The notes under the pieces are model-generated. The model was given only the letters and a program-made list of their open reading frames with translations, did not search any database and was not told where the DNA came from. Shown here in pieces: positions 18,563 to 38,822 of a stretch of DNA of 44,499 bases. Source of the DNA: Candidatus Parcubacteria bacterium (lineage in GTDB: Bacteria; Patescibacteriota; Minisyncoccia; UBA6257; 2-01-FULL-56-20). The stretch spans positions 1 to 44,499 of the forward strand of contig DAIEHA010000007.1 of assembly GCA_027355945.1 (NCBI GenBank), given 5' to 3'. Made by a program: the position numbers and the translations under genes. The stretch's first letter is position 1, and each line of letters opens with the position of its first letter.

Positions 18563-19531
18563 TCAGAATATCCTGAACAGAAGCTGCACGAGTACAAGAC
18601 CGATCACGCCGAGGATCGCGACATATGAGAACACGGAGGCATTCGGGAACCCGCCTTTGGGGACGGTCGTCGTGGGGGTATATTCCTCAAGCCGTTCATT
18701 GCCCGCAGCATCGAATGCCCGCACCGCGATGGTATCGGTGAGCGACTGGTCGGTAAGGAGATAGGGGCTTATTGCCCTCTTCCAATTCCATTGGTCCTCG
18801 GGGAGCTTGAGGTTGGAGGAAGGGATCTCGGCGACCTCATAATGATCGATGCCCGTCTGCTTGTCCACGGTCGAAAACGTGGCAAACCATTGATTATTGA
18901 AAAGCGAGGGGTCGCGATATACGCCGATCGCAAAAGGTTCGGGGGGGATGGTGTCATCCTCGAGCGCCTTCTGCCAGGTATCCACCGCTGCGAACTGCCC
19001 CTGCAGCAGCTCCCCGTACTTCGCACCCGCCGTCGTAAGAGGTGCGATCGTCCCCTCGCCGTCGTTCAGCGTCGCTTGGGTGCCGGGAAGGAACGTGAGC
19101 GATGCGTTTTCCGGGGCGGTGGAGGACCCTTCGCTCGTCGATGTGGCAAAGCGGAAATAGATGGTGGCAAGCTTATTGCTGAGCGACGGGTCTCCGGGAA
19201 CGCGTCCGCAATATCCTCCGGGAAGCCCCCCCACGAACGATACGATCCCATACTGCGGATAGATCGTGGGATTCTTCACCCACATGGAGAATATGGAATC
19301 CCCATCGCTCACGGCGACCGCCTGAAGCACGTCCGCCGGATATGCGATGTCCACCTCGGCCGCATTGATGCATTGCGATGCGCCCGTATCAAGACGCACG
19401 CTTACCGGAAAGGTGACGCCCGGCGGATATTTCCCCGTTGCCGGATCGATGTAGATCTGGGCCGCGTGCGCAAAGAAGGGCGCGAACCCCGCATACGCCA
19501 CAATCGCAAGGATGATACCGTTCCTTTTCAT
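18563..19531 (-). CDS. secreted cohesin-domain protein with C-terminal TM anchor (cohesin 2)
   Basis: Signal peptide (FAHA), GVTFPVSVRLDT..INAAEVDIAYP..SIFSMWV..SFVGG, Ig-like DTIPPEPF..GIDHYEV, terminal TM. Confidence 0.8.
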   Translation of the reverse strand: MKRNGIILAIVAYAGFAPFFAHAAQIYIDPATGKYPPGVTFPVSVRLDTGASQCINAAEVDIAYPADVLQAVAVSDGDSIFSMWVKNPTIYPQYGIVSFVGGLPGGYCGRVPGDPSLSNKLATIYFRFATSTSEGSSTAPENASLTFLPGTQATLNDGEGTIAPLTTAGAKYGELLQGQFAAVDTWQKALEDDTIPPEPFAIGVYRDPSLFNNQWFATFSTVDKQTGIDHYEVAEIPSSNLKLPEDQWNWKRAISPYLLTDQSLTDTIAVRAFDAAGNERLEEYTPTTTVPKGGFPNASVFSYVAILGVIGLVLVQLLFRIF

Positions 19532-19563
19532 TTATATTAAAATTATATCACACGGAGCGGGGG

Positions 19564-20724
19564 TCATCCCGTCCAATAGTAGAGAAGGATGCTCAGATCC
19601 GAAAGGTCCACCACGCCGTCGCCGTTCAGGTCCGCGGTGGGATTGCTGGTCCCCCAATAATAAAGGAGTATCGAGAAATCCGCGAGGTTCACCCTGCCGT
19701 CGCCGTTCAGGTCCGCAAGCAGCTTTTTGCTCGGCGTACCGCTGCCCACGTAAAAAGGCACTGCCTGGCTTATCGTGCTCCGCAGCGTCGCACCGTTCTC
19801 CATCGTAATGAAATCGGCGTCCACCGTATGATAAGCATCGTTCTGAAGCACCGACGTATCCACGGGCACCATCCATCCTCCCCCAGCGTTCGTACTCGTC
19901 GTCACCACGATATTACCCCCGGAATGCACATGTACCTCGATGGTTGACGACGGCACGGATTCCCCGGACACCGTCACGACACCTCCTTTCGCCACTTGGC
20001 GTTTATCGATGGATATCGTCGGAGGAAGAAGTTCACCGGAGATCGTGGTCGCGGCGTCCGCGGTGACGGTGAACGTCGTCGTGAGCGCGATCGACTTGAG
20101 CCCGGTCGAATCCTGGGCCCATATGCCGAATGTATATACCCCCGGGGAGATGTTCGTCGTCGAAAAATAGAAGTTCGCATTGGAATCGGCCTGGACGACG
20201 CCGATCGCCTGTCCGTCCTGGAGGATGTTCACGCTCGCACCCGGATATGCCTGTCCTTGGATGACCACGGTCGTAGGATTCGGCGCGGTGTAGCTTCCCG
20301 GAGAATAACCGAACGAGGGCGCGGGCGCGGGGCCGGGACCCGGCTGGGGCGCGAGCGACGTGATCTGGCACGTCGCCGAGCATCCGTACCCCGGCACTCC
20401 GTTCATCGCGCCGGCATCGCATTGCTCCCCGTACTGAGGCTGGAGGATCCCGTCGCCGCAATACGGCGCCCACGCCCGGCATCCCGGCATGCACTGCCGA
20501 TTGGCCGTCGACGTGGAATACTGCCCCGTGTTCGTCCCGGTGTCGCACACTTCGGTGGGGGCCTGCACGATGCCATCCCCGCACACACTGATCGTCACGG
20601 TGGTCGTTGCATAGCTCTGGGCGCGCGCCGGGCTTATCGGCCGCACCGAAGGGAACAGCGCTGCCGCCATGGCTGCCGCGGCGGAGAATATGCCTATGGA
20701 GCGCAGGGATGGCCGGCGGATCAT
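19564..20724 (-). CDS. secreted dockerin-domain protein with two Cys-rich CGDG repeats and two Ig-like domains
   Basis: C-terminal duplicated Ca-binding motifs DLNGDGRVNLADF / DLNGDGVVDLSDL; CGDGIVQ..EVCD and CGDGILQ..EQCD; start ATG 20724. Confidence 0.85.
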   Translation of the reverse strand: MIRRPSLRSIGIFSAAAAMAAALFPSVRPISPARAQSYATTTVTISVCGDGIVQAPTEVCDTGTNTGQYSTSTANRQCMPGCRAWAPYCGDGILQPQYGEQCDAGAMNGVPGYGCSATCQITSLAPQPGPGPAPAPSFGYSPGSYTAPNPTTVVIQGQAYPGASVNILQDGQAIGVVQADSNANFYFSTTNISPGVYTFGIWAQDSTGLKSIALTTTFTVTADAATTISGELLPPTISIDKRQVAKGGVVTVSGESVPSSTIEVHVHSGGNIVVTTSTNAGGGWMVPVDTSVLQNDAYHTVDADFITMENGATLRSTISQAVPFYVGSGTPSKKLLADLNGDGRVNLADFSILLYYWGTSNPTADLNGDGVVDLSDLSILLYYWTG

Positions 20725-20732
20725 ATGGATAA

Positions 20733-21737
20733 TTATGCCCTCGGCGCGTGCGGAGGAGGAGGCGTCGGAATACCCTTCTTTCGGCGGCGGCTTCGGAAAA
20801 ATCCTCGGATGAAGAAAAGGATCGCCCAGAGCACAAGCAGTATTCCTGCGAGGACCGCGAATGTGATGAGCTTCTCCTGCCATGGCAGGACGAGGAAGTT
20901 GTAAGGGATGTATCCGGGGATGCTTCCGGGCGGCAGCACGCTGAGGTCGAGGGTGCCCTGTCCGATAAGATCGCTATCATCCCTTCCGTAGATCTGATAG
21001 AAAACCTTGTAGGTTCCTTGGGGTAGATAGGTGGGCATCTCCGCGGTCACGGTCTTCGTCTGGAACGGATCGACGCTTGCAAGCCAATTCGTGTTCTGTT
21101 CCACCTCGAGCACCTTCTGCGTGAGATAATCGCTGTAGGTAAATACCACTTTTTCCGGACTTCCCGAGATGTTCCCGTCGTTCTCGATATCCATATTGAA
21201 CAGGACCTTGCCCGGGAAATGCATCCATAACCACGTGAACCCCTGTTCTGCGTTCGTCATCGACACGCGCCGCACTTTGAAATTGACGTTCTTCTCATTG
21301 ATGACGCGGAGGTTCACATCGATCTGCGCACCGATCGTGAGACCGACGGTCCCCGCTACGGGGCCGCTCATCGGAGAGACGACGACCTGGATGTTCCCCT
21401 GATACTGTCCGAGCTTCGCATTGCTCGGCACGTTCACGCTCACGATCATCGGCATCTCCTGGGTGCCCGAGGGCATCGCGAACTGCATGCCCTTATCGAT
21501 GGAAATCCAGCTTTCCGCGCCGGGGACGTTGATCGTCACTTTTGCGGTAAGGTCCTGGTCCGGCGCTCCGCGCACAAGGAGGATCCTCTGTTCATAATGA
21601 GAGCCTGGTGCGAGCGCATCGTTCGTCACATAAGGAGGAGTGATGCCGAACCCCTCGGCATCCGTCCGATGCACGCCGAACGGAAAACCGGCGCACACCA
21701 TAAGCGCCGCCGCCGCTATGAAGATCATCTTCCTCAT
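20733..21737 (-). CDS. divergent DUF916/WxL-interacting-like protein, membrane anchored
   Basis: Signal peptide, FGITPPY..LAPGS, SWISI, VNVPSNAKLGQYQGNI, IENDGNI, C-terminal TM plus basic tail. Confidence 0.65.
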   Translation of the reverse strand: MRKMIFIAAAALMVCAGFPFGVHRTDAEGFGITPPYVTNDALAPGSHYEQRILLVRGAPDQDLTAKVTINVPGAESWISIDKGMQFAMPSGTQEMPMIVSVNVPSNAKLGQYQGNIQVVVSPMSGPVAGTVGLTIGAQIDVNLRVINEKNVNFKVRRVSMTNAEQGFTWLWMHFPGKVLFNMDIENDGNISGSPEKVVFTYSDYLTQKVLEVEQNTNWLASVDPFQTKTVTAEMPTYLPQGTYKVFYQIYGRDDSDLIGQGTLDLSVLPPGSIPGYIPYNFLVLPWQEKLITFAVLAGILLVLWAILFFIRGFFRSRRRKKGIPTPPPPHAPRA

Positions 21738-23763: not shown

Positions 23764-24966
23764 CTATTTATAGCGTATTGCCTCGAGCGGACTTATGGAC
23801 GATGCCCTTCGCGCGGGGAATATTCCCGTAATGAAACCCACGAGAGCCGAGAAAACCGTGATAAATCCGAGGAAAGGCAGCGGGAATGCGAAAAGCGCCA
23901 CCGCAGCACCGCCAAAATGCGTAGCCACAAGGTTTAATAGGTAGTTGATGATGAGACCTCCGGCGATGCCTATGGCCATCCCCGTCATGCCTCCAAGAAA
24001 ACCGACCACGACCGCTTCCGCGAGGAAAAGAAACTGGATGTCCCGGGGCGACCCCCCGATCGTACGCATGACGCCGATCTCCCCCGTACGCTCGAGGAGC
24101 GTCACCGTCATGGTGTTCACCATGCCGATCGCCGATACGATAAGTGCGATACCCCCGAACCCGGCAAGGACCCACTGGACGCCGGTGAAGATCTGGTTTG
24201 CCTGGTCCACCGTCTTCGAAAGCGCCGAGACCACATAGCCGGCCTTCACGATGGCGGCCTGGACGCCGCCCAGATTGCCGCTCGCGTTCACGCGCACCTG
24301 CACTTTGTCGTACTGCTGGATCCCCACCTGGGAGGAAAGCGTGGCGAGCGGGATCATCGCATAGATGGAGGCGCTGTCATTCGTCACCCCCGTCACGGTG
24401 AAATTGCCGTTCAGAGGAACCTGCTCGCTCTGTCCCCCGTTTTGGGCCTGCGTCACGATCCGGAACGATACCGGTTTCCCGATGATCGCCTTCGGATCGC
24501 TCACGCCGAAAAGCTGCAGCGCCGCGCTTGAAAGAATGACGTCGTTCCCGTCCGACGGCTGGTCGGTGAACGGGCTCCCGGCCGCCATGGCAATACCGGC
24601 ATATTTGAAATACGACGCCTGTGAGCCCTCGAGGTCCGTGTTCGCCGAGAGGCCGTTGTAGGTGATGAGCGATTGGAACGTTGCAAGCGGCGAGACGTCC
24701 TGGACGTTCGGGATCGCTTTGAACTTCGCGAGTGCGCCATCGTCGAGGGCCACGGCGCTCGTCGCCGGTGGCGTGACGGTGAGACTGAGCAGCGTATCCC
24801 CGAACACGATCTTCTCGAGCAGGATGTTCTGGAGGCCGAACCCGAGGCCCACGAGCATCACGACCGCCGCAGTGCCCACGCCCATACCAAGGATCGTAAG
24901 CCACGTCCTCGCGGGATTGGTCTTGAACATCCTCGTGGAAAGCTTCAGTGAATCGGCGATCCTCAT
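23764..24966 (-). CDS. MacB/FtsX-family ABC transporter permease
   Basis: RTWLTILGMGVG, large extracytoplasmic domain, GMVNTM..LERTGEIGVMRTIG, FPARRASSISPLEAIRY. Confidence 0.93.
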   Translation of the reverse strand: MRIADSLKLSTRMFKTNPARTWLTILGMGVGTAAVVMLVGLGFGLQNILLEKIVFGDTLLSLTVTPPATSAVALDDGALAKFKAIPNVQDVSPLATFQSLITYNGLSANTDLEGSQASYFKYAGIAMAAGSPFTDQPSDGNDVILSSAALQLFGVSDPKAIIGKPVSFRIVTQAQNGGQSEQVPLNGNFTVTGVTNDSASIYAMIPLATLSSQVGIQQYDKVQVRVNASGNLGGVQAAIVKAGYVVSALSKTVDQANQIFTGVQWVLAGFGGIALIVSAIGMVNTMTVTLLERTGEIGVMRTIGGSPRDIQFLFLAEAVVVGFLGGMTGMAIGIAGGLIINYLLNLVATHFGGAAVALFAFPLPFLGFITVFSALVGFITGIFPARRASSISPLEAIRYK

Positions 24967-24985
24967 GGTTATAGTATAAAACGGT

Positions 24986-26296
24986 TCAGAGATACATGCC
25001 CTGCCCTATGAGCTTCTCGAGGTACCAACTTACATACCGCGCCGTGTCCGGATCGAGGCCCATGCCATCCCCCTCGAAGGGAGACTTGAGGCGACGGCGG
25101 AAATCCTCGGACTGGATGAATCCGCGAATGCGGAATTTCAGGAGCTCGTCCATACGCGCGATGTGCTCCGGCGGGATGCGAAACCCGCATTCCCGCATGA
25201 GATCCTCGCGCACCTCGGCGATACGGTCCCCTTGGCGCAGCGAGGCCACTTTCGCCGTGAAGTTATCGCGATAGGCGCGGATGTCCCTCGCCTCTTTAAG
25301 TACGATGTTCAATTTCTCCTCGAAAGTCTCCGCCCGATGCCGATCGATCTCCGGACCGCCTTCGTCCACGGATCTCGTGAGCTTGTCCACGAACCCCTCG
25401 TCCGTGAGCTTCCCGTCGATGAACATGCCGACCGTCCGCTCCAATCGCTCGATCTGATCGAACCCGATGTCCTGGGTGAGGAAGTTCACGACGCTCTTCA
25501 CCCGCAGCTCCTCCGGCGATGCATACGGATAGATGCGTGCCAACTTCTCTATCTCGGAAAGGATCGACGTGCCGGGATCCGTCTGCTTGATCTGCTTCTT
25601 CTCCGGGTTCACCACCTCGCGCTCCACGCCTCCGTCCTTCATATGATACACGCGGTGCGCGTACGGCAAGAGCTTCGCATCATGGGTGACGAGAATGACG
25701 GTCTTCTGCTGTTTTATGTTGATCTCCTCGAGCATGCCCATCACCTGGTCCGCCGAAACGCTGTCGAGGTTGCCGACCGGTTCGTCGGCGAAGAGGATCT
25801 CGGGATCGTTGATGAGCGAGCGGGCGACGGCGACGCGCTGCTGCTGTCCGCCGGAGAGGTCGGTCGACCGCTTGCGCGCCTGCTGTTCCACGCCGAACTG
25901 CTTGAGCAGCTTCATGGACCGGATATAGCGTTCCGCGGGCGGCACGTTCGCGAAGATGAGCGGCAGCGCGACGTTGTCGATCACGCTGAGCGAGGGGATG
26001 AGGTTGAACGATTGGAAGATGATCCCCACCGTGCTCCTTTGGAATCGCACCATGTCCTTCACGCCGTACTTATATGGATTCTCCCCTTTCACGAGGATCT
26101 CCCCGGACGACGGCGGAAGGATCCCGAGAAGGCTGTACAGCAGCGTTGATTTCCCGCAGCCCGAAGGACCGAAGAGGATTATGTATTCCTTGGGATAGAT
26201 CTCGAGCGTCTCTCCGCGCAGGGCGTTGTATTCGTTCGATTTGCCCTGGTTGTAGATGACCTTGATGTTGTTCACCCTGATGATCGGTTCAAGCAT
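24986..26296 (-). CDS. MacB/LolD-type ABC ATPase with about 200-aa C-terminal extension
   Basis: GPSGCGKST, FQSFNLI, LSGGQQQRVAVAR, ADEPVGNLD, VTHD; start ATG 26296. Confidence 0.92.
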   Translation of the reverse strand: MLEPIIRVNNIKVIYNQGKSNEYNALRGETLEIYPKEYIILFGPSGCGKSTLLYSLLGILPPSSGEILVKGENPYKYGVKDMVRFQRSTVGIIFQSFNLIPSLSVIDNVALPLIFANVPPAERYIRSMKLLKQFGVEQQARKRSTDLSGGQQQRVAVARSLINDPEILFADEPVGNLDSVSADQVMGMLEEINIKQQKTVILVTHDAKLLPYAHRVYHMKDGGVEREVVNPEKKQIKQTDPGTSILSEIEKLARIYPYASPEELRVKSVVNFLTQDIGFDQIERLERTVGMFIDGKLTDEGFVDKLTRSVDEGGPEIDRHRAETFEEKLNIVLKEARDIRAYRDNFTAKVASLRQGDRIAEVREDLMRECGFRIPPEHIARMDELLKFRIRGFIQSEDFRRRLKSPFEGDGMGLDPDTARYVSWYLEKLIGQGMYL

Positions 26297-26306
26297 GATG
26301 ATTCGA

Positions 26307-27788
26307 TTATTTTTTGGCGCCTCCCGAGAAGTTTCCGAGCCATCCGAATGTCCCCTGGAAGTTCTCGAGGATGATATCCACGATGCTCTTCTGCTGCTGC
26401 GGCGTAAGGAGCACGTAGTCCTCCGAGCTCGTCGTGTTCCCATCCACGTCGGTACAGGTCACCCAGTATTTATACACGGTCGCAGGCGTGAATGTCGTGA
26501 TGACGTCCACGTGCTTCACGACGGGGACGGTTTCGAGCGTCGTCGTCACGACGTCCGCGCCGCTCCCGCTCGAATATGAAAGGAAGCACATCGATGGCTC
26601 ATCGGTCGCCCACGAAATGACCGTCTGGACGGTCGTGTCCTGTCCCGGATAGAGCGTGGAGTCGTTGCTCACCTGCGAGATCACCGGAGGATAGATGTTC
26701 TTCGTCGTCACGAAGTAGACGGGGTCGCTCTTCACCGTATCGCCCGCCTGGTTCTGCGCGATGATGACGGCCGAATAGCGCGTCTGGTAGACGAGTCCCG
26801 CGATCTGGAGAATGTGCGTCGTAAGGTACGATGGATCCCCGATCGAGAGCGATTTGTTGTTCGCCATATCGGTATAGACGATCTCACCCGCCGACGGCAT
26901 GGGCGTACCCCAGCTTATCGTGACGTCGTGCTCGCCCACCGTCACGACGTGAGGATTGATGATCTGAGGAAGGACCGATTTGGTCGTGAACGTGAGATCG
27001 GCGCTCTCTCCCGGCGTGCCGATCCCTCCTGCGCGCGAGGATACCATGTAGTGATATTCCGTCGCCGGCGAGAGTCCGTAGACCGTCACCGTGTGCGTCT
27101 TCCCGAGCCCGTTCTGATCCGTTTCCTGCCGCGGATACGGGTTCGCATTCGAGGGATTGTACTCCGCGGCGGAGGCGATGGATACCGTGCCATCCGCGCT
27201 CTGATCGGTGTTCCAGACGACCGTCACATTATCCGTGCCGATGGTGAGCTGAGGGATACCCAGGATGTTCGGCGGCCCGATGCTTGCTTTGGCCTGCTGA
27301 TTCAGGGCTCCCGCGATCGCCTCGAGCGCCTGCGTGCTCGTGATCTGCTGGATGATGGAGAGCGCCTTTGCGGAAAGCTGCTGCTGCTGCGGATTCGTGA
27401 TGTTCGAAAGTTTGGAAAGGTCGATGGTGCTCGAGGTCGTGAACGTATAATCCCCCGAAACGTGCTGGTTGCCGTTCGCATCGGTGGAGCGTATGCGGAA
27501 ATAATACGTCGTCCCCGGATCAAGATTGGGAATGACGACCGAGTGCTGGGTGCCGAGAGGCCCCTGGTTCCTCATCCCGCAATAGTTCGTATCCTGGCTG
27601 AAGTTCACAAAACTGTCGGTGTTGGAATCCGTGGTCCATGTGACCGTGGTCGAGGTGGCGGTCACGCCCGCAACGACCACGTTCGAGATGTTCGGCGAGG
27701 TGTCCGCAAGCGCCCGCACGACGACCGCCGCGGACATGGCCGCGGCACCCATAAGCACCCCTATGGCGAACAGCGAGCGCGCCTTCAT
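26307..27788 (-). CDS. secreted protein with four fibronectin type III-like repeats
   Basis: Signal peptide; repeated V-x-W-x-T...H-x-V...L-x-P-x-T-x-Y pattern (TVTWTTD..HSVVIPNLDPGTTYYF etc.); start ATG 27788. Confidence 0.85.
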   Translation of the reverse strand: MKARSLFAIGVLMGAAAMSAAVVVRALADTSPNISNVVVAGVTATSTTVTWTTDSNTDSFVNFSQDTNYCGMRNQGPLGTQHSVVIPNLDPGTTYYFRIRSTDANGNQHVSGDYTFTTSSTIDLSKLSNITNPQQQQLSAKALSIIQQITSTQALEAIAGALNQQAKASIGPPNILGIPQLTIGTDNVTVVWNTDQSADGTVSIASAAEYNPSNANPYPRQETDQNGLGKTHTVTVYGLSPATEYHYMVSSRAGGIGTPGESADLTFTTKSVLPQIINPHVVTVGEHDVTISWGTPMPSAGEIVYTDMANNKSLSIGDPSYLTTHILQIAGLVYQTRYSAVIIAQNQAGDTVKSDPVYFVTTKNIYPPVISQVSNDSTLYPGQDTTVQTVISWATDEPSMCFLSYSSGSGADVVTTTLETVPVVKHVDVITTFTPATVYKYWVTCTDVDGNTTSSEDYVLLTPQQQKSIVDIILENFQGTFGWLGNFSGGAKK

Positions 27789-27839
27789 GTTGTTATGATA
27801 CCACACGCACGGGCATCGCCCCGTGCCACACCTCCTCGT

Positions 27840-29897
27840 TTATGGCCACGGCAGCGGAAGTTTCACGCCTACGAACGAATTCATCCCTGTGTACGTGGTC
27901 GCCATCTGCCCCGTGGGGATCGCAATGCCCCAATAGAACGTGGAACTTTCCACCGCGATCGTGGATGTGGGTTTCGGAAGATCGATCGCCACCGTCGATC
28001 CCGGATTGGGAAGCAACGCCGTTCCTGATGCATAGGAGATCACGGATGTCGCGAAGTGCTGCTGTCCCACGGGGATGCTGAACGACCCGTTCACCATGTT
28101 CGTGCCGTAGACGTCCACGTTCATCGCGACATTTCCCATCGATTGGATGACCGATGCAGGACCAAGGCTCGCGGTGCCGGAACCCTGCGTGAGGTTCCCG
28201 TAATTTATCGTCGAGGTGGTCTCGAACGCAAGGAGCGAGAGCAGCGTCACGCCGGTGGAGGATGCCGTGCCCGTAGCGCCGGCCGAGTCCACCGCAAGCA
28301 TCGAAGCCGACCAGGAATCCCCCGCCCACGGCGTCGATGCGTCCGTCGGCTGGGCGAAATACGCTACATGGAAATTGCAGGTCACGTTACAGGACGTTCC
28401 CGCGCAGTTACTGAATGAACAATCGCTCGGAACGCCTTGATAGCAATCATTCGGATCCGGCGTGCATGCCGGCCCGAGACTCGTGCGATAAAGGGTGCTC
28501 GTGACCGTCTGGACATCGGTATAGCCGTTGCCATCACTCACGGTTGCGGTCGCGGTGATGAGCGTCGTGGTCCCCTCGATGAGCGCGATGCTCTGTCCGC
28601 CGTTCAAGGTGACCGAGTTTATCGTCGGAGGGACGTTCCCGATGGTGACCTCCGGGTATGCGGCATAGGAGGTAAAGGCGGTGCCGTTCGATTCCACGGC
28701 GCGAAAGCAGAACGTGGACCCTCCGGGCGCACTGTTGTCGATGAGCGCGAAGTCCCACTTGCCATCCTCTCCGGCAGGAATGGCGCCCTGCGAATTGGTG
28801 AACGGGTTTGCTTCCCCATAGGTCTGATTCACGATCGTGTTCGTCCCGTCGATGGGATCGGTGGATGTGGGAATGAGAGGATCGCCGTTCGCGGGGGTGG
28901 GGTTGTTGTAATATTCGATGTATCCCGTCGAGGTCGCCACGTCGGCATACGCCCCCGTCGGCGCCGCGCACGTACCCGTCCCCATAGTAGCCATCTGGAG
29001 CTTGAAGGAACGGTTTCCCGCCGCAAGCGGATTCGTCGTCACATTGATGAGCATGCGGAGGCGGAAGGGCGCCGTAAGCGATGCGAGTACCGTCGATGCA
29101 TTCTGCAATGCGAGCGGGGGCCCGACGCCTGCGCTGTCCGTGTTCGAGAACCATCGGAATGCCGACTGCGTGAACGTGATCTGCGCCCTGAAGCTCACGA
29201 TCTGCCCGATCCATGCGCCCGATGCCGCCGCGGTGCCGACGGTGGAATAGGTCCCTGTTGCGTTCACCACGCGGTCCGCGCCGCTGTAGGTCGCACGGGT
29301 ATTGTGACTGCCATTCACGTTCGCAAAGTCATTTTCTTTCGTGAAGGAATTGCTCCAGGAAGAGAATGTCGTTTGCGCCACGATGGTGGTGGCGGCGAAG
29401 ATAAGTTCATCGGGCTGGGTCGTCGTGATGGATACGCCGTTCGTCGCCGTACCGGTGCCCGTCGTGGAGGTCGCCTGATCGAGCGGATTGGAGACCGATA
29501 GCCCGCTATATTCGTAAATATGGAGACCGAGCTGCAGCGAGGTTGCCGTCGTCACCGTGACCGCGGTCGGTTCGGCGGAACCCGCCAACTTATAAAAAAT
29601 GGCCTGGCTCGCCGTACCGCTCATATTGAGCGCCGCGGACCAGCCGGTCGGCACGTTGATGCCCGTATTTCCGCTCGCGCCGAGCACCGCGATCAGAAGA
29701 TCCCCGGAGGTCGGCGTCACGCCGAACGTCGCCGTCACGGTGTTCGCACTGCCGCCCGCGCTCGTATTGCTCGCCGTCTGCACGAGCGTCGTCGTGGCGT
29801 GAGCGAACGGCCACAGCACGAATATCCGGCTTACCGCAAGCCATGCGAGGAGTAAACCGGCAACAATGATGCCAAGGGAGTAGATGCGGCGCATCAT
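27840..29897 (-). CDS. secreted multidomain protein with C-terminal WxL/pilin-like domain (class B)
   Basis: Signal peptide (FAHA); C-terminal 260 aa paralogous to the 21811..23661 product (INYGNL...YWGIAIP...YTGMNSFVGV). Confidence 0.8.
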   Translation of the reverse strand: MMRRIYSLGIIVAGLLLAWLAVSRIFVLWPFAHATTTLVQTASNTSAGGSANTVTATFGVTPTSGDLLIAVLGASGNTGINVPTGWSAALNMSGTASQAIFYKLAGSAEPTAVTVTTATSLQLGLHIYEYSGLSVSNPLDQATSTTGTGTATNGVSITTTQPDELIFAATTIVAQTTFSSWSNSFTKENDFANVNGSHNTRATYSGADRVVNATGTYSTVGTAAASGAWIGQIVSFRAQITFTQSAFRWFSNTDSAGVGPPLALQNASTVLASLTAPFRLRMLINVTTNPLAAGNRSFKLQMATMGTGTCAAPTGAYADVATSTGYIEYYNNPTPANGDPLIPTSTDPIDGTNTIVNQTYGEANPFTNSQGAIPAGEDGKWDFALIDNSAPGGSTFCFRAVESNGTAFTSYAAYPEVTIGNVPPTINSVTLNGGQSIALIEGTTTLITATATVSDGNGYTDVQTVTSTLYRTSLGPACTPDPNDCYQGVPSDCSFSNCAGTSCNVTCNFHVAYFAQPTDASTPWAGDSWSASMLAVDSAGATGTASSTGVTLLSLLAFETTSTINYGNLTQGSGTASLGPASVIQSMGNVAMNVDVYGTNMVNGSFSIPVGQQHFATSVISYASGTALLPNPGSTVAIDLPKPTSTIAVESSTFYWGIAIPTGQMATTYTGMNSFVGVKLPLPWP

Positions 29898-31959: not shown

Positions 31960-33791
31960 CGCTTCGCTTCCCTCTCTTCCTCGCCCTCGTTCAATGCGCG
32001 ATCGACGTCGTCGACCTCCTTCGCGATGGTCGATTCGGAGATGGCAAGCGCATTCCTCATCGCATCGAGCACGTTCTCCGGCTCGAGTTTGATCTCGCCC
32101 TGTGCCGCCGCCGCGCCGCCCTCCATGTGGTTGATCTGGTCATCCACCTCCTCGCGCAACGCCTCGAATACCGCCTTCGTCTTCTGGCGCACATCCTCAT
32201 TCTCCCTCTTCGCGAGCGAGATGTGAATATCGTTTATCTTCTTCCGATAGAACCCGTACGTCACAAGTCCGCCGATGAACGAAAGAAGCAGGACGATGAT
32301 GATCCATCCGAACCGGTCGAGGAACGGTGCCGCAAGGACGTTCATCGGCGCGCCCGCGGTCGTGCTCGCAAACGCGCCCTGCGTCGTGACCATCGACGCG
32401 ACAAGCGTGTATCTCCCTCCAGGAAGACCGCCTTCCACCGCATAGAGCCAATGCCCCGTCGCATCCGCCACCATCTTCCCCTCGGACACCGTCTTTCCGG
32501 TCGAGTCATCGATATCGAGTGTCACGTTTGCGCCGCTATCCGCAACGCCTTCGATCACGATCGGGGACTGTTCGATCACCGTCGCCGGGAAATTCGTGAT
32601 CTCCGGACTTCCGATCCCTGAAATCTGGAATTGGCCGTCGGCCTCCGTGCTGTTGCCGGCCTTGTCTATCGCGAAGATGGCGACCGTATGCTTGCCCGGC
32701 AGGAGCGGCGGAGCGGTGTAGACCCCATTCTGCATATCCGAAAGCGCGATCGTCGACGACGCCCCTCCATCGAAGATCACCTCATAATGGTCCACCCCCG
32801 AAACCGTATCCGTCGCATTGAACGCGATCGTCGTCCTTCCTGAGATTCCCGCGCCCGGTGCGATCGTGAGCGTGAACGGCAGCGGGGACGTAAGGTCGAT
32901 CTGCACCGGCATGGCCATGGGATCACTCCAATCCCCCAGCGCATCCTCGAAGCGCACATGGAAATACCACACTCCTTCCCCGATGTTGGAATATTGCTTG
33001 CTTGAAATGAGGCCCTCGGACACCCTCTTGGGATACGTGTTGGGATTCCTATCGAACGCCGTGCTCACCCCCGCGACGTCGGGCGTCAGCTTCCATGAGA
33101 AGGATGGGTTCGGATTGCTGTACCACTTGGTGGGATCGGGATGCGTCGGCGAAGTGATCGTCACCGCAGGCGTGAACGACGAGGGGGTGCTCACGGGCTG
33201 GGCCGCCTGTCCCGACGATCCGCCTCCTTGGCTTGCCGCCGCAGCCTGACTCGCGGATGAGGGGGCAGGTGCGGGAGCGGCGGCACTGATGGTGAATGTG
33301 GCGCCCGTCGTTCCTCCGAGAGCGCTCGTCCCCTGGCCATCCGCCGCAAGCGCATCCGCGGACGCGAATTGGAGCGATGCGCTTCCCGCCTTCAATGCTT
33401 TGAATGTGACATCGAACACGTCGCCGGCATCGCCGGTGTACGCGTTGTTGCTCCCTCCGCTGAAATTCACGGTGCCATCCGTATTCGAGAACGAGGGATC
33501 GTTCACCCAAAGGTTGAACACCGAATTTCCCTTTGAGATGCTCTCGGCGGCCAGCATCGTGGGATCGAATGTGATCTTGCCGTCGGCGGCGTTCACTCCC
33601 ACGCCTCCTCCGCTCGCAAGCATGACGCTCACCGTGAATGTCTGGCCCACGGAATACGAACCGCTTGCCGGAGAAATGGATAATGAAGCCCCTCCCGCGG
33701 CCTTCGTATGCGGGGACGGGAGGATGAATGCCGCAACGAGGAACGCAGCGGCGACAATGCTACTTCCCAGCCTGATCCTTTGATGGTTCAT
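31956..33791 (-). CDS. cohesin-domain protein with Ig-like stalk, TM anchor and cytoplasmic coiled-coil tail (cohesin 1)
   Basis: SLSISPASGSYSVGQTFTVSV..VNAADGKITFDP..SVFNLWV..NFSGG; SPTHPDPTKWY; GVDHYEV; TM WIIIVLLLSFIGG; start ATG 33791. Confidence 0.85.
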   Translation of the reverse strand: MNHQRIRLGSSIVAAAFLVAAFILPSPHTKAAGGASLSISPASGSYSVGQTFTVSVMLASGGGVGVNAADGKITFDPTMLAAESISKGNSVFNLWVNDPSFSNTDGTVNFSGGSNNAYTGDAGDVFDVTFKALKAGSASLQFASADALAADGQGTSALGGTTGATFTISAAAPAPAPSSASQAAAASQGGGSSGQAAQPVSTPSSFTPAVTITSPTHPDPTKWYSNPNPSFSWKLTPDVAGVSTAFDRNPNTYPKRVSEGLISSKQYSNIGEGVWYFHVRFEDALGDWSDPMAMPVQIDLTSPLPFTLTIAPGAGISGRTTIAFNATDTVSGVDHYEVIFDGGASSTIALSDMQNGVYTAPPLLPGKHTVAIFAIDKAGNSTEADGQFQISGIGSPEITNFPATVIEQSPIVIEGVADSGANVTLDIDDSTGKTVSEGKMVADATGHWLYAVEGGLPGGRYTLVASMVTTQGAFASTTAGAPMNVLAAPFLDRFGWIIIVLLLSFIGGLVTYGFYRKKINDIHISLAKRENEDVRQKTKAVFEALREEVDDQINHMEGGAAAAQGEIKLEPENVLDAMRNALAISESTIAKEVDDVDRALNEGEEEREAKR

Positions 33792-34362
33792 CCGGAATTT
33801 CTTTAACCGAAAGCCTCTTCCCCTCTCCGGGGTGCTTCGCGGGCAATACGATGCGGAGCACTCCCCGCTCAAGGGACGCTTCCGCCTCCCCGCTATCGAA
33901 CGGTGCGGGAAGATAGACCTTCCTGTACCATTTCTTCCATTTCGTCTCCTGTTTCACATACCGCCCCTTCTCATCCCGATCGCCATCCTTCGCACCGGGA
34001 AGCGGAGGCGGCGCAGGACGCTGCTGTTCCGCTCGGATCGTGAGGGTGTTCGCTTCTTCGCTCATCACTATTTCGAGGCCGTCCTTCGCGACACCGGGCA
34101 ATTGCGCCACTACCACCATCCTTTCATCCGACTGGAAAAGGTCTATGTCGAGGGGTTCCGTCCCATCAGGAGGAAGATCGCTTCCTTGGTCCACTGCAAT
34201 GGATACCGGAGGTTCCCCGGGCCGTTGCGGCTGGTCCACGCGCTCTCCTGTGGCTTTGAAGGATGCCGTCCTCGAAGACGCGGACGGCGCCGGCGCGGCG
34301 GGTACCGCATCGGGATTGACTTCGTTCAGTTTGCTTTCGAGCTTCTGGTAGAACGAGAGCAT
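33760..34362 (-). CDS. Hsp20/alpha-crystallin family small heat-shock protein
   Basis: PLDIDLFQ..VVVAQLPGV..LTIRAE..YRKVYLP..ASLERGVLRIVLP; start ATG 34362. Confidence 0.88.
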   Translation of the reverse strand: MLSFYQKLESKLNEVNPDAVPAAPAPSASSRTASFKATGERVDQPQRPGEPPVSIAVDQGSDLPPDGTEPLDIDLFQSDERMVVVAQLPGVAKDGLEIVMSEEANTLTIRAEQQRPAPPPLPGAKDGDRDEKGRYVKQETKWKKWYRKVYLPAPFDSGEAEASLERGVLRIVLPAKHPGEGKRLSVKEIPDEPSKDQAGK

Positions 34363-34399
34363 ATTATATCTAAGTATACCACACCTCTTCGCCGCTCCC

Positions 34400-36088
34400 T
34401 CATCCTGTCCAGTTGTACAGCATGATACTGAGATCGGGGAGATCAACGACGCCATCGCCGTTCAGGTCTCCCGGGGACCATGCCTCTCCCCAATGGAAGA
34501 GGAGTATGGAAAAATCCACGAGATTCACCTTCCCATCGCCGTTCAGGTCTCCTTTTCCTCTGGGTTTCGGCACCGTGCCCACACCAAGATAGGATATGCT
34601 CGAAAAAGGGCTCTGCGTGTAGGCGGGAAGGAACGCCCTCGCTTTGATCTGATAGGTATCGGCCGGGAATCCTCCCGTTGAAAGACCGTAAGACCACGCT
34701 CCCGTCGCATTCGCGGTCGTGGTCGCCGTCACGGGAGCCTGTGCGCCGCTCTGGCTCGTCACCACGATTTCCACGGTCGAGGATGGTTCGGCGACGCCCG
34801 CGATCGTCGCGGTCCCTCCGATACCCACCGTGCTCGTGGCAAATGAAAGTCCCGGGGGGAGCAGGATGTTCGTGATCTGGTTCGTCGTCCCCGAAATGAG
34901 CGTGATCGTCGTCGTATACGAGGCGATCGCGGTCCCACCCGTACCGTTCTCAAGGAGCGTGAATGAATATGTCCCTTCCGGCATCGGCGGGATGGTGACG
35001 GAGAAATTCCCCGCGCTGTCCGCGATGGTGGAAGCGCTCGGCAGCAGAACGCCGTCCTCGAGCACCGAGATACTGACGTTCGGCAGCGCGATGCCCGAGA
35101 TGGCGAGCGCCGGCTCCGCCGGCCCTGCAGGATATGGCGCACCGCCGCCTCCGCCGCCTCCGCCTCCGCCCGAATAGGATTGGCCCGACGTCCCGCCGCC
35201 CAACCCGGTACCCGTCGGATCGCCCGCAATGAAAGAGATGACGTAATCGCTCGTATCGGTGTTCCCCGTAAAATCCATGCAGCGCGCATAGAGCGTATAC
35301 GTGGTCCCCTTGGTGATGCCGGTGATCGTCGTATATTGGAACGTCCCCGTATAGTCGCTCGAAAACGTCCCCGTCATCGCGCTATAGCTCACCCCCGAGG
35401 ATGTCGCATACCGACACGTGGAATACGTATCCGCATTGAACGATACGACGACCCCGAGAACGTTCGAGGGGATCGTGCCCGTCGGCAGCGCATTGGAGAG
35501 GACCGGCGGCGTGGTCCGATACTGGTTCACGTCGACACCGACCGCGGGAAGGATCGCGACCATCGCCGAACCGTAATCGATCGCGGTCCCCGAAGCGGCA
35601 TTCGTATCGATAAAGATGCGATAGGACGCCGTCGATGATGGATTGGTTATCTCATATCCTCCCGGTATGCCCAAGATCATTTTCACATATGCCCCCGGAG
35701 GAACGGAGGCTCCCGACGGCATGGCAACCGTGATCGGTCCCGTCCCCGGAACGATGGAGACCCCCGCATCCGAAATTCCCGCGGAAGGCCCCACCGCCCA
35801 CGGCACGAATCCGCCGGTCGGTGAAGACGTGGAGACCGCGAACGAAACATCCGTGTAATTGAAGGAGGGGTCCAATAAGAATGCATCGTTCTCGAACGAA
35901 ATGACCGCGGAGCCCGATGCGGGGATCCCTCCGGGGACGCCGAACACGATCGTGTGGGTCGTCGGCCATGAGGGCCGCGAATCCCCGATCGTATCGCTCA
36001 CATGGGACATGACCGCGGCATGCGCGAACTGCGGGATCGCGGACGCGCATATCCATATCGCCGCCAAAAGCAACAGATATCGTTTCAC
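34400..36088 (-). CDS. secreted dockerin-domain protein whose N-terminal domain is shared with the 37689..38822 subunit
   Basis: Signal peptide (FAHA); C-terminal DLNGDGKVNLVDF / DLNGDGVVDLPDL; poly-Gly linker; two Ig-like domains. Confidence 0.85.
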   Translation of the reverse strand: MKRYLLLLAAIWICASAIPQFAHAAVMSHVSDTIGDSRPSWPTTHTIVFGVPGGIPASGSAVISFENDAFLLDPSFNYTDVSFAVSTSSPTGGFVPWAVGPSAGISDAGVSIVPGTGPITVAMPSGASVPPGAYVKMILGIPGGYEITNPSSTASYRIFIDTNAASGTAIDYGSAMVAILPAVGVDVNQYRTTPPVLSNALPTGTIPSNVLGVVVSFNADTYSTCRYATSSGVSYSAMTGTFSSDYTGTFQYTTITGITKGTTYTLYARCMDFTGNTDTSDYVISFIAGDPTGTGLGGGTSGQSYSGGGGGGGGGGAPYPAGPAEPALAISGIALPNVSISVLEDGVLLPSASTIADSAGNFSVTIPPMPEGTYSFTLLENGTGGTAIASYTTTITLISGTTNQITNILLPPGLSFATSTVGIGGTATIAGVAEPSSTVEIVVTSQSGAQAPVTATTTANATGAWSYGLSTGGFPADTYQIKARAFLPAYTQSPFSSISYLGVGTVPKPRGKGDLNGDGKVNLVDFSILLFHWGEAWSPGDLNGDGVVDLPDLSIMLYNWTG

Positions 36089-36100: not shown

Positions 36101-36544
36101 TCACGCCGCGGTCGGCGTTTCCTTCCCTTGTCCCATCCCCCTCTCCATGCGTTCGCGCCGTGCCCCGAGGTGGAAACTGAGTCCGACAAAAAACGCAGCG
36201 ATCCCCACCGCCACCATGAGATACCAGGGCACCGCCGAAGACGATGCGGGAGATCCCTTCGCCGCTTGGGATGCAAGCGCAGCCTTCTGGGACGCAAGGT
36301 CCGCAGCCTCCATGTCGAGCTGGGTCTTTTCCTGGCTCAATTGCGCGTTCAAAGTATTATACGGATTCGGCGCAACACCCACGACCACGCCCACCTGCGC
36401 AAGCATGCTCTTCGCCGGCGCAAATCCTCCCGGCGTTCTTGCGATGAAAAAGGTGCTTCCCACGACGACCGTTACGGCCGCCGCCATGAGTATCGTTCCT
36501 ATCCTTGCGTGTGGCATGCGCATGCCGGAAGCAGGACTATCCAA
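36101..36544 (-). CDS. small membrane protein with two TM segments and a short coiled coil
   Basis: Hydrophobic N- and C-terminal segments flanking NPYNTLNAQLSQEKTQLDMEAADL; start uncertain. Confidence 0.7.
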   Translation of the reverse strand: MDSPASGMRMPHARIGTILMAAAVTVVVGSTFFIARTPGGFAPAKSMLAQVGVVVGVAPNPYNTLNAQLSQEKTQLDMEAADLASQKAALASQAAKGSPASSSAVPWYLMVAVGIAAFFVGLSFHLGARRERMERGMGQGKETPTAA

Positions 36545-37640
36545 AGAAGAAGAACAGGATCATCAGGAATATGATCGCGAAGACCACCGTCGCCACGAGG
36601 ATGAAGACAAGGCGGGAGAACGGAAGCCTTCCTTCAGCGAGGAGTCGCTCCTCGGCGGAGATGGATGCTGCATTGCCCTGGCGGCCCCCGGTCATGGCCG
36701 CGATCCGCCTCCTCACATACGCCCTCACGCCCCAGATGAATCCGAAGACGATAAGCACGAGGATGATGAGAAGTGCGAGTATCGGCACGATCGGGATGAT
36801 CCAGAAGGAGGTCTCCTGGGACACCGTCTTCTGGGCGTTATCCCCGTAGGTAAGGGACATCACCGCATCGAACCTCCCCATCATGAACCCTCCGCTCGTC
36901 CAATTCACCGTGAATGTCCGGTCCTGTCCCGGAAAGATCGCGTCATTCGAATCATTCATGATGACCGTCCCCACCTTCTGTCCGAACATGTTCGTGATAT
37001 CGATCGGGCCGCGCGGGCGGAGCAGGACATTCCCGGTATCGGCCGCATCTGCCGCAAACGTCACGTTCGCATCCTGATAAAGACCCTTGTCCGTGGAGAA
37101 AGAACGTATCTCTGCCGTCTCATTCGCCTGTCCCGCGATCCTGAAATCGAGGAGCGAACCCACCTCATACCCGATGCCGGTCCCCGTAAACTGAGGGCGC
37201 GTGGCGCCATAGGTCACGAAAATCGCCCCATAATGGCCGCCGGGGGCGGCGGTCGAGGGGACGTTCACGGTGAACGGTACGATGACGGCCCCGCCTGCGG
37301 GGATGGTGATCACCGGACTCTGGATGCTCACCCAGGAAGTGATGCCGTATTCGGGCACCGAGGAGCTGCTGAACACCGGTTCGCCACCGCTGTTGAGGCC
37401 CGAGATGTCCTTCACGCTCACCGTGTAGGTCCGCGATACGGGATCCGGATTCGTGACGGTGATCGATGTCGAAAACTTATCGCCGGGATTCACGATCTGC
37501 TGGAAGATCGCGGGCTGCACCTTCACCCCTGTCGCATTGGCTCCCGGGGTTCCCGGAGCGGACTGCGCGAATGCGATCCCTCCAATAAGAGTCGCGACGG
37601 CTGCACCGGCAAGGACCGCTCCCCACGCCTTTTTCTTCAT
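36537..37640 (-). CDS. DUF916/WxL-interacting-like membrane-anchored protein
   Basis: VKVQPAI..VNPGD..ITVTN, ITSWVSI..IPAG..VPFTVNVPSTAAPGGHYGAI, DTGNVLLRPRG; two C-terminal TM helices. Confidence 0.8.
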   Translation of the reverse strand: MKKKAWGAVLAGAAVATLIGGIAFAQSAPGTPGANATGVKVQPAIFQQIVNPGDKFSTSITVTNPDPVSRTYTVSVKDISGLNSGGEPVFSSSSVPEYGITSWVSIQSPVITIPAGGAVIVPFTVNVPSTAAPGGHYGAIFVTYGATRPQFTGTGIGYEVGSLLDFRIAGQANETAEIRSFSTDKGLYQDANVTFAADAADTGNVLLRPRGPIDITNMFGQKVGTVIMNDSNDAIFPGQDRTFTVNWTSGGFMMGRFDAVMSLTYGDNAQKTVSQETSFWIIPIVPILALLIILVLIVFGFIWGVRAYVRRRIAAMTGGRQGNAASISAEERLLAEGRLPFSRLVFILVATVVFAIIFLMILFFFFG

Positions 37641-37688
37641 TACATGCATCGTATCATGCGCCGCCGCACCCTTTCAAGCCTTGAGGGC

Positions 37689-38822
37689 TTAGAAGGTCGG
37701 GGTTGCGACGTAGATGAGGTTGTTCGTGTAGTCGTTCGCGGCAGGCTGCAATGTACCGATCTCGATCCGATAGGCCACCTTCGCGGTTCCCACGTTCTGC
37801 GTCGTTCCGTCCGCAGGACCGTTCCATGCGAACACGGTGAGCGTGGAGGTGGGATTGATGCTGCCGGCATAGAGCGGCGTGGACGTACCGAAGCTTGGCG
37901 CACCGACGATCGAACTGCTCACATCGTCGCTCGTGACGCCGAGATGGCCGTAGGTCGCAGGCTGATTGATGACGTTGCTCGGCGCGGCCCACGGACTCGG
38001 CGTGGATGTCGCATTGCCGTTATCGAAAAGATGGATGGTGTTCCCCGTCTGGCTCGTAAGGTCCTGGTCCTCGTGGACGGTCACCGCAAAGCCGTTTGCG
38101 GCGTTCGTCGTCACATACAGCTGCTGACCGAGCTCGGCGTGGGTGTTCGGTGAGATCACGCCGAATGGGACCGTGGTCGAGGTGGATGCGCCCGTCGTCG
38201 TTGCGCCGTTTCCAAGCGTCGTGGAGGTCGCAAGCCCCGCCACCGTAAAGGTGAAGGTCGTAGCAACCGCCGCCGTCACATTGACGCCATTCACGATCGC
38301 GACGCGGGTTGCCGCGGAATTCGTGCCTGCCGCGACGTTTATCACATAGGACCCGGTGCTCGTCGGGTTCGTGATCGTATTATTCAAAACTTTGAGGGTG
38401 ACCGTTCCCGCGGGGATCGTTGCGCCGCCGCATACGGTGAATACAAGGGAGTTCGTGGTGGTCGCCACGCTGACATTGTTACCTCCGTTGTTACAGGTAT
38501 ATCCGGTGATGGTCATCCCGGTCGAAGTCACATCTGCAAGCACGACGCCGCCTACGTTGCCGAATGCGCTCGTGTTGGGATCGAAGGTATACGTGATCGT
38601 CTGCCCCGTCAACGTGCTCGTCGAATCAGTGAATACTATCGTATGATTCGCTGCAAACCCCGGGCGGGAATCGGACAATGTGTCGCTCACTGAAGTAAGG
38701 CTCACTGCGTGGGCGGTGTTCACAAATCGAAGCATCGTGCTCCACGAAACAAGACTTACGATCAGACCTGCTGCGACCGCGATTGCGACATCGCGATTTG
38801 TCATCGTCCTTTTACTAAACAT
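37689..38822 (-). CDS. secreted two-domain WxL/pilin-like protein (class A), candidate major subunit
   Basis: Signal peptide (TAHA), Thr-rich beta domains, VPFGVI..VTTNAANGFAVTV..., C-terminus DYTNNLIYVATPTF; own promoter. Confidence 0.75.
   Translation of the reverse strand: MFSKRTMTNRDVAIAVAAGLIVSLVSWSTMLRFVNTAHAVSLTSVSDTLSDSRPGFAANHTIVFTDSTSTLTGQTITYTFDPNTSAFGNVGGVVLADVTSTGMTITGYTCNNGGNNVSVATTTNSLVFTVCGGATIPAGTVTLKVLNNTITNPTSTGSYVINVAAGTNSAATRVAIVNGVNVTAAVATTFTFTVAGLATSTTLGNGATTTGASTSTTVPFGVISPNTHAELGQQLYVTTNAANGFAVTVHEDQDLTSQTGNTIHLFDNGNATSTPSPWAAPSNVINQPATYGHLGVTSDDVSSSIVGAPSFGTSTPLYAGSINPTSTLTVFAWNGPADGTTQNVGTAKVAYRIEIGTLQPAANDYTNNLIYVATPTF

Follow-up and report, generated by a model that had tools for sequence, protein, structure and literature searches.

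The stretch of DNA examined here (44,499 nucleotides; hereafter the window) is the entire 44.5-kb contig DAIEHA010000007.1 (C25) of the Candidatus Parcubacteria bacterium assembly GCA_027355945.1, a 735-kb genome in 27 contigs with ~60% G+C that is 92% complete. The window carries an array in which genes for a secreted subunit, a DUF916-like membrane protein, a dockerin protein, and a cohesin protein follow one another in this order twice, as module 1 and module 2. An earlier note on this DNA had pointed out both copies from the sequence, and the eight open reading frames (ORFs) that it named are all present, on the minus strand (Table 1). The subunits of modules 1 and 2 are called subunit A and subunit B below, and their cohesin proteins are designated L-type and S-type. 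As described below, the array has the features of a candidate pilus system whose fibers would be held to the membrane by a dockerin–cohesin pair.

Gene content of the array

By using our own hidden Markov models (HMMs) on the whole genome, we identified five chaperone-like genes, three dockerin genes, four cohesin genes, and six to seven genes with a subunit C-terminal domain (C-domain), and all of these except one orphan fall in two clusters that occupy ~37 kb, or 5% of the 735 kb. A Pfam search of the genome returned exactly three dockerins, which score 30.3, 39.7, and 33.7 bits (Dockerin_1 cut-off, 22.9 bits), and cohesins that score 42.6 and 27.6 bits (Cohesin cut-off, 24.1 bits), together with one borderline case (23.0/24.1 bits). 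Every Pfam dockerin and cohesin of the genome (three and four, respectively) sits inside the modules. The dockerin and cohesin labels of the earlier note are borne out by these scores for both dockerin proteins and for the L-type cohesin protein of the window, and the short S-type cohesin lies at the cut-off.

A third module was located by tblastn on contig C22, where genes for 1779- and 320-amino acid B-type subunits are followed by a DUF916-like gene, a dockerin gene, and two cohesin genes, with housekeeping genes on the borders. The same approach located an orphan paralogue of subunit A on contig C11. A look through sequencing runs turned up none with RNA. The array in the window is also larger than first described, as it includes two further DUF916-like genes (m1a and m1b in Table 1) and two further large subunit genes (1119+ and 685 amino acids).

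Table 1. Positions of the genes of the array in the window, with the members of one secreted protein family found beside modules (L-numbers are locus labels; TM, transmembrane helix)
Feature	Position	Strand	Evidence or remark
Large subunit, 1119+ aa, 5' end lost at contig end	41067..44499	-	C-domain HMM E 1.8e-24; C-terminus 30% to subunit A, E 3e-12
DUF916/WxLIP-like chaperone candidate m1a, 334 aa	40055..41059	-	Profile E 4e-81; signal peptide, TM 271-306
DUF916/WxLIP-like chaperone candidate m1b, 369 aa	38953..40062	-	32% to 370-aa copy, E 4e-49
Subunit A, two-domain pilin candidate, 377 aa	37689..38822	-	HHalign 97.7% to small-pilin family
DUF916/WxLIP-like chaperone candidate m1c, 370 aa, adjoins module-1 dockerin gene region	36537..37649	-	WxLIP_PGBD 19.2 bits
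Small two-TM protein, 140-147 aa	36101..36544	-	Same place in module-1 orthologue of another family (L058, E 1e-6)
Module-1 dockerin protein DOC562, 562 aa	34400..36088	-	Dockerin_1 30.3 bits
Hsp20 between dockerin and cohesin genes	33760..34455	-	Pfam; kept in genus
L-type cohesin protein, 638 aa	31956..33872	-	Cohesin 42.6 bits
Secreted low-complexity protein, 671 aa	29944..31959	-	N-terminal FYPxxCLGxW domain
Large B-type subunit, 685 aa, acceptor domain ends ...YTGMNSFVGVKLPLPWP	27840..29897	-	31% to subunit B, E 6e-29
Fn3-repeat protein (499 aa), ATP-binding cassette (ABC) ATPase (485 aa), and MacB/FtsX-type permease (400 aa)	23764..27806	-	Pfam; kept within array in genus
Subunit B, 616 aa	21811..23661	-	C-domain HMM; HHalign 91.9% to small-pilin family
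Divergent DUF916/WxLIP-like chaperone candidate of module 2, 334 aa	20733..21737	-	Profile E 3.9e-46; TM 287-316
Module-2 dockerin protein, 439-aa ORF	19564..20883	-	Dockerin_1 39.7 bits
S-type cohesin protein, 322 aa	18563..19531	-	Cohesin 23.0 bits; 24.1 in six-frame search
FYP(S/T)xCLGxWxN family members	window 29944-31959; L001 (C22) 2950-8289; L038 494-2269; L043 1081-2577; L044 16057-17907		

Conservation of the module

The complete 26-kb array is syntenic in five other genomes of the genus at 55 to 93% identity. A C22-type module is found in another four genomes of the genus, and variants of it in three other families of the order. The 370-amino acid DUF916-like protein of module 1 is matched in 12 of 41 genomes, its own and those of its closest relatives included. 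On the scale of the phylum, we searched 401 Patescibacteria genomes from 320 genera with a chaperone profile built from 48 DUF916-like proteins (E <= 1e-5), and this profile matched 209 genomes and 169 genera. Note that one genome flagged as unpublished (G194) enters only the chaperone and dockerin tallies of this sample.

Gene order was assessed in 20-kb regions around the best chaperone hit in 40 genomes from 40 other families, which were picked from the top of the hit list and whose ORFs were labeled with HMMs built from proteins of the window's genome and iterated on these loci. A subunit C-domain gene is present in 38 of the 40 loci, and in 37 it immediately precedes a chaperone gene of the same strand. 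Dockerin genes are found in 12 loci (Pfam confirms Dockerin_1 in 12 of 12 ORFs), and the dockerin gene directly follows a chaperone gene in 11 of these 12. A cohesin gene stands immediately behind the dockerin gene in 11 of the 40 loci, and 10 loci show all four parts in order. Within the modules, gene junctions mostly overlap or are shorter than 10 bp. A related order, with a small pilin gene, a two-domain pilin gene, and a chaperone gene in succession, is visible in five of six loci from named Saccharimonadales metagenome-assembled genomes.

The order of genes in relatives is thus nonrandom, and its retention in three modules of one genome and in 10 loci of other families supports the view that the four parts constitute a single conserved functional unit. 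Therefore, the WxL-like and cohesin–dockerin parts very probably work together, as the earlier note had argued. The co-occurrence of dockerins and chaperones per genome is weak (odds ratio 1.6, uncorrected for kinship) and was not used as support.

DUF916-like proteins

The family profile of the DUF916-like proteins aligns with EfmWxLIP1 from the Protein Data Bank (PDB; 9i25_C, 9i1y_A) at E 5e-9 with coverage of both domains, and a signal peptide and a C-terminal TM are found in all five copies of the genome. WxLIP_PGBD (PF06030) is matched by 33 of the 48 family members at E <= 0.01, and DUF3324 (PF11797), which corresponds to the second domain, by 0 of 48 at the same threshold. The m1c protein of module 1 gives only a sub-threshold WxLIP_PGBD match (19.2 bits, E 1.3e-3) compared with the gathering score of 27.3 bits. 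For its module-2 counterpart, Pfam reports CopC instead (25.7 bits), an identity that we rejected as fold-level noise, with 1 of 48 family members giving this match. One chaperone relative carries the name PapD chaperone in its source.

From profile comparison and predicted topology, we assign the DUF916-like proteins as membrane-anchored, two-domain distant homologues of Bacillota WxLIP. Like WxLIP (PMC10599100; PDB 9i25/9i1y), they combine two immunoglobulin (Ig)-like domains with a C-terminal TM helix, whereas identity is only ~20 to 25%, DUF3324 goes unrecognized, and the hosts are ultrasmall bacteria of the Candidate Phyla Radiation (CPR). Our literature search found no paper that treats DUF916 together with Patescibacteria, and a tblastn search of plasmids with a DUF916-like protein gave no match. 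As a separate observation, the 370-amino acid copy has a second hydrophobic segment (residues 340–370) past the usual TM (residues 278–313), and this segment is kept in relatives (...FFFFG end).

Subunits

Subunit A comprises a signal peptide, an N-terminal domain (residues ~40–172), a conserved linker (~172–195), and a C-terminal acceptor domain (~190–377), and it carries a near-invariant pair of cysteines, Cys110 and Cys131; its 921 relatives are all unnamed. Subunit B begins with an N-terminal hydrophobic segment, has the mature start QSTATTTVTV..., and continues with a Cys-rich middle and a B-type C-terminal acceptor domain. The 1119+ amino acid subunit at the contig end has a Gly-rich N-terminal part, internal repeats in common with the 685-amino acid protein, and a pilin-type acceptor domain ending ...YNDNVIYIATPVF, and it is a candidate tip adhesin. 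The subunits have an N-terminal hydrophobic segment only and are without a C-terminal TM, and no LPxTG-like motif was found within 60 residues of the C-terminus in either the subunits or the dockerin proteins.

The last element of the subunit C-domain is a conserved strand with the pattern ...Q.AG.Y...(I/L)TY(I/V)AT..F. A profile of the small-pilin family matched 2287 cluster representatives at E <= 1e-3, and among the 150 of these that were listed, the match to this domain ends within ~6 residues of the protein end, in proteins of 114 to 3107 amino acids. By HHalign, the small-pilin family is related both to the subunit A family (97.7%, E 1.8e-12) and to the family of subunit B and the 685-amino acid protein (91.9%, E 6.8e-7). 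Direct homology between subunits A and B was not accepted as established (HHalign, 0.25% for the families and 8.7% for seed-only C-domains; no BLASTP match at E <= 1), and only the link through the small-pilin family was kept. These profile comparisons indicate that the subunits all carry one C-terminal domain family at their very end. In a language-model search, the nearest named clusters were WxL (0.77 for the whole protein and 0.87 for the C-domain), values that we treat only as leads.

The sole Pfam family matched repeatedly by small pilins is DUF4402 (5 of 67, best E 0.002; 1 of 89 at E 9e-6), of which our literature search found no mention. Separately, in two loci (L071, 6196-9531; L081, 2256-5588), the gene after the chaperone gene encodes a protein of ~1060 to 1080 amino acids with the pilin N-terminal motif (...ASNH(T/E)I.F) and no C-domain hit, dockerin, or TM. 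These proteins may be another kind of donor-only subunit.

Dockerin and cohesin proteins

The module-1 dockerin protein, DOC562, consists of a signal peptide, a pilin-type N-terminal domain and linker, Ig-like spacers, a Gly run, and a type I dockerin with two Ca-loop repeats. HHalign relates its family to the subunit A family (99.4%, E 1.6e-21), with residues 25–185 of subunit A aligned to residues 11–188 of DOC562, which covers the N-domain and linker only, and the C-domain HMM matched 0 of 29 dockerin ORFs. The module-2 dockerin protein has the mature start QSYATTTVTISV..., followed by Cys-rich repeats, Ig-like domains, and a type I dockerin. Comparison with relatives indicates that its true start is likely the Met at ~20724 (Met54 of the ORF). 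Past the signal peptide, this protein (QSYATTTVTISV) and subunit B (QSTATTTVTV) show the same N-terminal strand. Dockerin proteins are therefore candidates for terminator or anchor subunits that can donate a strand to a neighbor and have no domain that accepts one.

In all cohesin proteins, a C-terminal TM helix serves as the membrane anchor. In the S-type protein, a signal peptide and the cohesin precede a TM at the extreme end. The L-type protein includes a signal peptide, the cohesin, Ig-like domains, a TM (residues 511–543), and an extra charged cytoplasmic tail of ~95 amino acids, and it is a candidate membrane socket. The presence of two cohesin types, one of them with a cytoplasmic tail, may allow fibers to be exchanged or released.

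Dockerins and cohesins together are the hallmark of the cellulosome, and the proteins of the window share with it a type I dockerin that has two Ca-binding repeats and cohesins that score above or near the Pfam cut-offs. Accordingly, we considered whether the locus encodes a cellulosome-like complex that degrades or binds glycans and merely lies beside unrelated surface-protein genes. However, the three dockerin proteins show only Ig-like, Fn3, and Cys-rich repeats, with no catalytic or carbohydrate-binding domain found in them, and they resemble pilins or are rich in Ig-like domains. Moreover, each cohesin protein is TM-anchored and has a single cohesin, neither enzymes nor a multi-cohesin scaffoldin are in evidence, the whole genome has only three dockerins, and the gene order with the chaperone is conserved. 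In Southlakia epibionticum, a Saccharibacterium in culture, a dockerin-domain protein (SEML1_0315) is essential (PMC10633639), and a 2023 paper in Cell speculated that an essential dockerin protein of a Saccharibacterium targets glycans. Even with this precedent, we regard a cellulosome-like role as highly improbable.

Proposed assembly mechanism

Two pilus systems described in 2026 preprints provide the closest models. Pam pili were solved from Ca. Mycosynbacter amalyticus, a member of the Saccharimonadia within the CPR (Troman et al., 10.64898/2026.03.03.709456; PMC13278184). In these pili, the linker strand of a two-domain pilin fills the truncated Ig-like C-domain of its neighbor, PapD-like chaperones carry a C-terminal TM helix, a pilin that consists only of a C-domain sits at the tip, and PamR, which consists of an N-terminal strand, two fibronectin type III (FnIII) domains, and a TM helix, is predicted to act as both terminator and anchor (PMC13278184). 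The second system is Elr of Enterococcus faecalis, which established that enterococcal WxL clusters build a donor-strand-exchange pilus (Sleutel et al., 10.64898/2026.10.17.759780). There, a DUF916/DUF3324 membrane protein is the chaperone, and a donor-only LPxTG protein is the sortase-anchored base (10.64898/2026.10.17.759780).

The window resembles both systems. Pam belongs to the same phylum and was compared by its published description. The likeness extends to two-domain pilins of ~38 to 55 kDa with a signal peptide, paired cysteines, a conserved linker, and a C-terminal domain (a description that the 377-residue subunit A fits), to chaperones with a C-terminal TM beside the pilins (five copies here, and in 37 of the 40 loci), to a small pilin with only a C-domain, to a terminator with an N-terminal strand and Ig or FnIII domains, and to the lack of both usher and sortase. 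With Elr, the window shares a membrane-anchored chaperone that is homologous at profile level to the DUF916/DUF3324 protein, as described above, a putative C-terminal polymerization domain on small and large subunits, and a candidate donor-only base subunit as the fiber anchor. The terminator candidates of the window end in a dockerin rather than in a TM helix, and their cohesins reside on separate membrane proteins, which distinguishes them from Pam. Unlike Elr, the window has subunits that Pfam WxL does not recognize and a dockerin–cohesin pair instead of LPxTG and sortase, and a search for sortase (PF04203) in the 92%-complete genome found none.

On this basis, we somewhat favor the interpretation that the window, with its two modules, and C22, with the third, encode a chaperone-assisted donor-strand-exchange pilus system of the Pam or Elr/WxL kind. 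Starting from homology, topology, and gene order, we infer the following steps, including polymerization and cohesin–dockerin anchoring. The chaperone would hold the open C-terminal domain of each secreted subunit, and polymerization would proceed by each subunit donating a strand, which in two-domain pilins is the linker, to the one before it. Large subunits (1119, 685, and 616 amino acids) would bear payloads at the tip or close to it. Last to join would be the dockerin protein, as a donor-only terminator, and its C-terminal type I dockerin would plug into a cohesin whose carrier protein is fixed in the membrane by a C-terminal helix. The cohesin–dockerin pair would thus take the job that the TM helix of PamR performs in Pam and that LPxTG and sortase perform in Elr.

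Loci that have no dockerin gene are informative with respect to this last step. Among the 28 such loci, 11 encode, behind the last chaperone gene, a protein of up to 500 amino acids with a signal peptide and a C-terminal TM; Ig-like domains are present in 10 of these 11 TM proteins. Two of these TM-ended proteins can each be aligned with the body of a dockerin protein encoded at another locus (L078 with L062, E 9e-25 over ~215 residues; L064 with L060, E 3e-19). The simplest reading is that a dockerin protein and a cohesin protein would together replace a membrane-anchored terminator like PamR.

Another arrangement that must be weighed is a static surface platform that builds no fiber, wherein the DUF916-like protein holds single large adhesins and the cohesin–dockerin pair tethers an Ig-rich protein. 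This is the WxLIP model of PMC10599100, and it would accommodate the great size of several subunits (616–1779 amino acids); polymerization in the window is deduced from sequence. However, fibers were demonstrated for both related systems in the two 2026 preprints, small and two-domain subunits with a conserved linker and C-terminal strand are abundant, and donor-only dockerin proteins make sense mainly in a chain. We therefore judge such a platform to be unlikely, although it is considerably more plausible than a cellulosome-like complex.

Several observations weigh against the pilus interpretation. Pfam WxL (PF13731) was not found in the genome at E <= 10 and matched 0 of 89 and 0 of 67 subunit domains, so the term WxL-like of the earlier note holds for the chaperone, by its profile match to EfmWxLIP1, and is not borne out for the subunits. 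A sequence search of the PDB with three subunit profiles and one Saccharimonadales pilin gave no relevant match; a single match to an Ig-like strand of a glycosidase (E 0.039) was judged to be due to chance. In some dockerin proteins, the N-terminal strand is unlike that of the neighboring pilin. Pfam recognizes Cohesin at E <= 0.01 in only 7 of the 21 cohesin ORFs in the 40 loci, and because of this, the S-type calls rest largely on our own HMM. Finally, dockerins are present in 138 of the 401 genomes, at up to 15 per genome, and 55 of these genomes have no detectable chaperone. Therefore, the cohesin–dockerin pair has other uses in the phylum.

Relationship between the modules

The earlier note had explained the two modules by one old duplication of a single unit. 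By BLASTP, the matching parts are paralogous for the dockerin proteins (36.5% over 241 amino acids, E 1.6e-34), the cohesin proteins (39% over 89 amino acids, E 1.9e-15), and, weakly, the DUF916-like proteins (m1c with the module-2 copy, 26% over 160 amino acids, E 1.6e-4), and BLASTP does not confirm paralogy for the subunits, as given above.

Trees of the components were built by quick maximum-likelihood searches and have long branches, with support given by the Shimodaira–Hasegawa approximate likelihood-ratio test (SH-aLRT). The C-terminal halves of the module-1 and module-2 dockerin proteins are sisters (SH-aLRT 86), and the C22 type lies elsewhere in the tree. For the cohesins, an S clade (module 2, the first cohesin of C22, and cohesins of five other loci) is separated from an L clade (module 1 and the second cohesins) by a split with support of 93, although a clade that joins the module-1 and module-2 cohesins was not rejected by the approximately unbiased (AU) test (p 0.20). 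The chaperones encoded beside the two dockerin genes belong to separate deep clades (97–100), and that of module 2 is placed with the C22 copy (100).

S and L cohesin genes stand in tandem behind one dockerin gene in L058, L072, L077, L085, L044, and C22. Of these, L058, which comes from another family of the order, holds an orthologue of module 1 that includes the small TM protein. In two of the five genomes with a syntenic array (G022 and G014), the S cohesin gene lies ~5 kb upstream of the array and not behind the module-2 dockerin gene. From the split between S and L cohesins, their tandem occurrence elsewhere, and the placement of the chaperones in different clades, it follows that the modules of the window are probably two different types (A and B) that share one S- and one L-type cohesin, rather than a clean duplicate pair. 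A single clean duplication of one unit is only partly supported; the sister dockerin halves agree with it, whereas the chaperones, subunits, and cohesins derive from different deep lineages.

Taken further, the window could be one composite system in which A-type and B-type modules of separate descent share a single pair of S and L cohesins, an arrangement that fits the pilus mechanism and competes with the duplication proposed in the earlier note. The cohesin clades, the tandem pairs (five loci and C22), the L058 orthologue with S and L together, the divided chaperones, and the displaced S cohesin gene in G022 and G014 all argue for such a composite system. Countering this are the sister relationship of the dockerin halves, the AU result for the joint cohesin clade, and the quality of the trees. 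We hold the composite system to be slightly short of an even proposition.

Other genes and features of the loci

The Hsp20 gene is wedged between the dockerin and cohesin genes of module 1 in all five syntenic genomes, and there is none in the L058 orthologue. In G022 and G014, the relocated S cohesin gene has a second, distant Hsp20-like gene next to it (L034, 7547-8017; L037, 10980-11504). Genes for ABC ATPases are also found near modules in L053, L058, and L044.

The secreted low-complexity protein of the array belongs to a family with the motif FYP(S/T)xCLGxWxN and long stretches rich in Ala, Ser, Thr, and Pro, whose genes adjoin modules in several genomes (Table 1). On C22, the FYPxxCLGxW domain is fused to the N-terminus of the 1779-amino acid subunit. 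Proteins of this family may be a payload of the fiber.

After the short cohesin gene, the window (17797-18597) encodes a lamin-tail-domain (LTD) protein with a C-terminal TM, which is kept in G004. Elsewhere in the window, G+C falls to 0.475 at positions 4001-6000, compared with ~0.60 in the remainder, and a tRNA-Arg(CCG) gene is located at 5789-5863.

Some genomes of ~1 Mb (G210, G342, G206, G359, and G227) have 10 to 15 dockerin genes, often in tandem arrays that encode proteins of 600 to 900 amino acids and lie away from chaperone genes. Dockerins are here put to a distinct use in the phylum, and on a larger scale.

Discussion

The systems most closely related to that of the window have been described independently of each other. 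In the portions available, neither preprint (PMC13278184; 10.64898/2026.10.17.759780) mentions the other system, dockerin, or cohesin, and the words DUF916 and WxL are likewise absent from the available text of PMC13278184. Pam was reported in Saccharimonadia and Microgenomatia and declared exclusive to CPR (PMC13278184), whereas the relatives of the window are named Paceibacterota or Minisyncoccia by their sources. Elr/WxL was stated to be confined to Bacillota on the basis of a screen of RefSeq proteomes with Pfam thresholds (10.64898/2026.10.17.759780), and the proteins of the window fall below the thresholds used in that screen.

We tentatively suggest, with somewhat less assurance than for the pilus system itself and at a little below an even chance, that Pam of CPR and WxL/Elr of Bacillota may belong to one ancient superfamily of donor-strand-exchange fibers that are built by membrane chaperones without an usher. 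Such fibers would be present in about half of Patescibacteria genomes, and in one-quarter of the loci they would be anchored noncovalently, by a dockerin terminator pilin seated in membrane cohesins rather than by a TM helix or sortase. A more distant parallel is found in the chaperone-usher pili (Pap/Fim) of Gram-negative bacteria, which, as both preprints describe, also rely on donor-strand complementation and exchange, with a chaperone of two domains and a base terminator subunit. However, the system considered here operates without an outer membrane or usher, and its chaperone is membrane-anchored. The novelty seems to be the anchor, wherein dockerin and cohesin would stand in place of the anchors known from related pili.

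CPR bacteria, or Patescibacteria, are ultrasmall and live attached to other microbes, and their means of holding on is a central question. If the interpretation given here is true, it would link two systems that were published separately in 2026 and would extend Pam-type pili to Paceibacteria. The cohesin–dockerin pair, the glue of the cellulosome, would gain its first structural role as a pilus-to-membrane anchor, and an anchor that is noncovalent and Ca-dependent would explain fibers that are easily shed.

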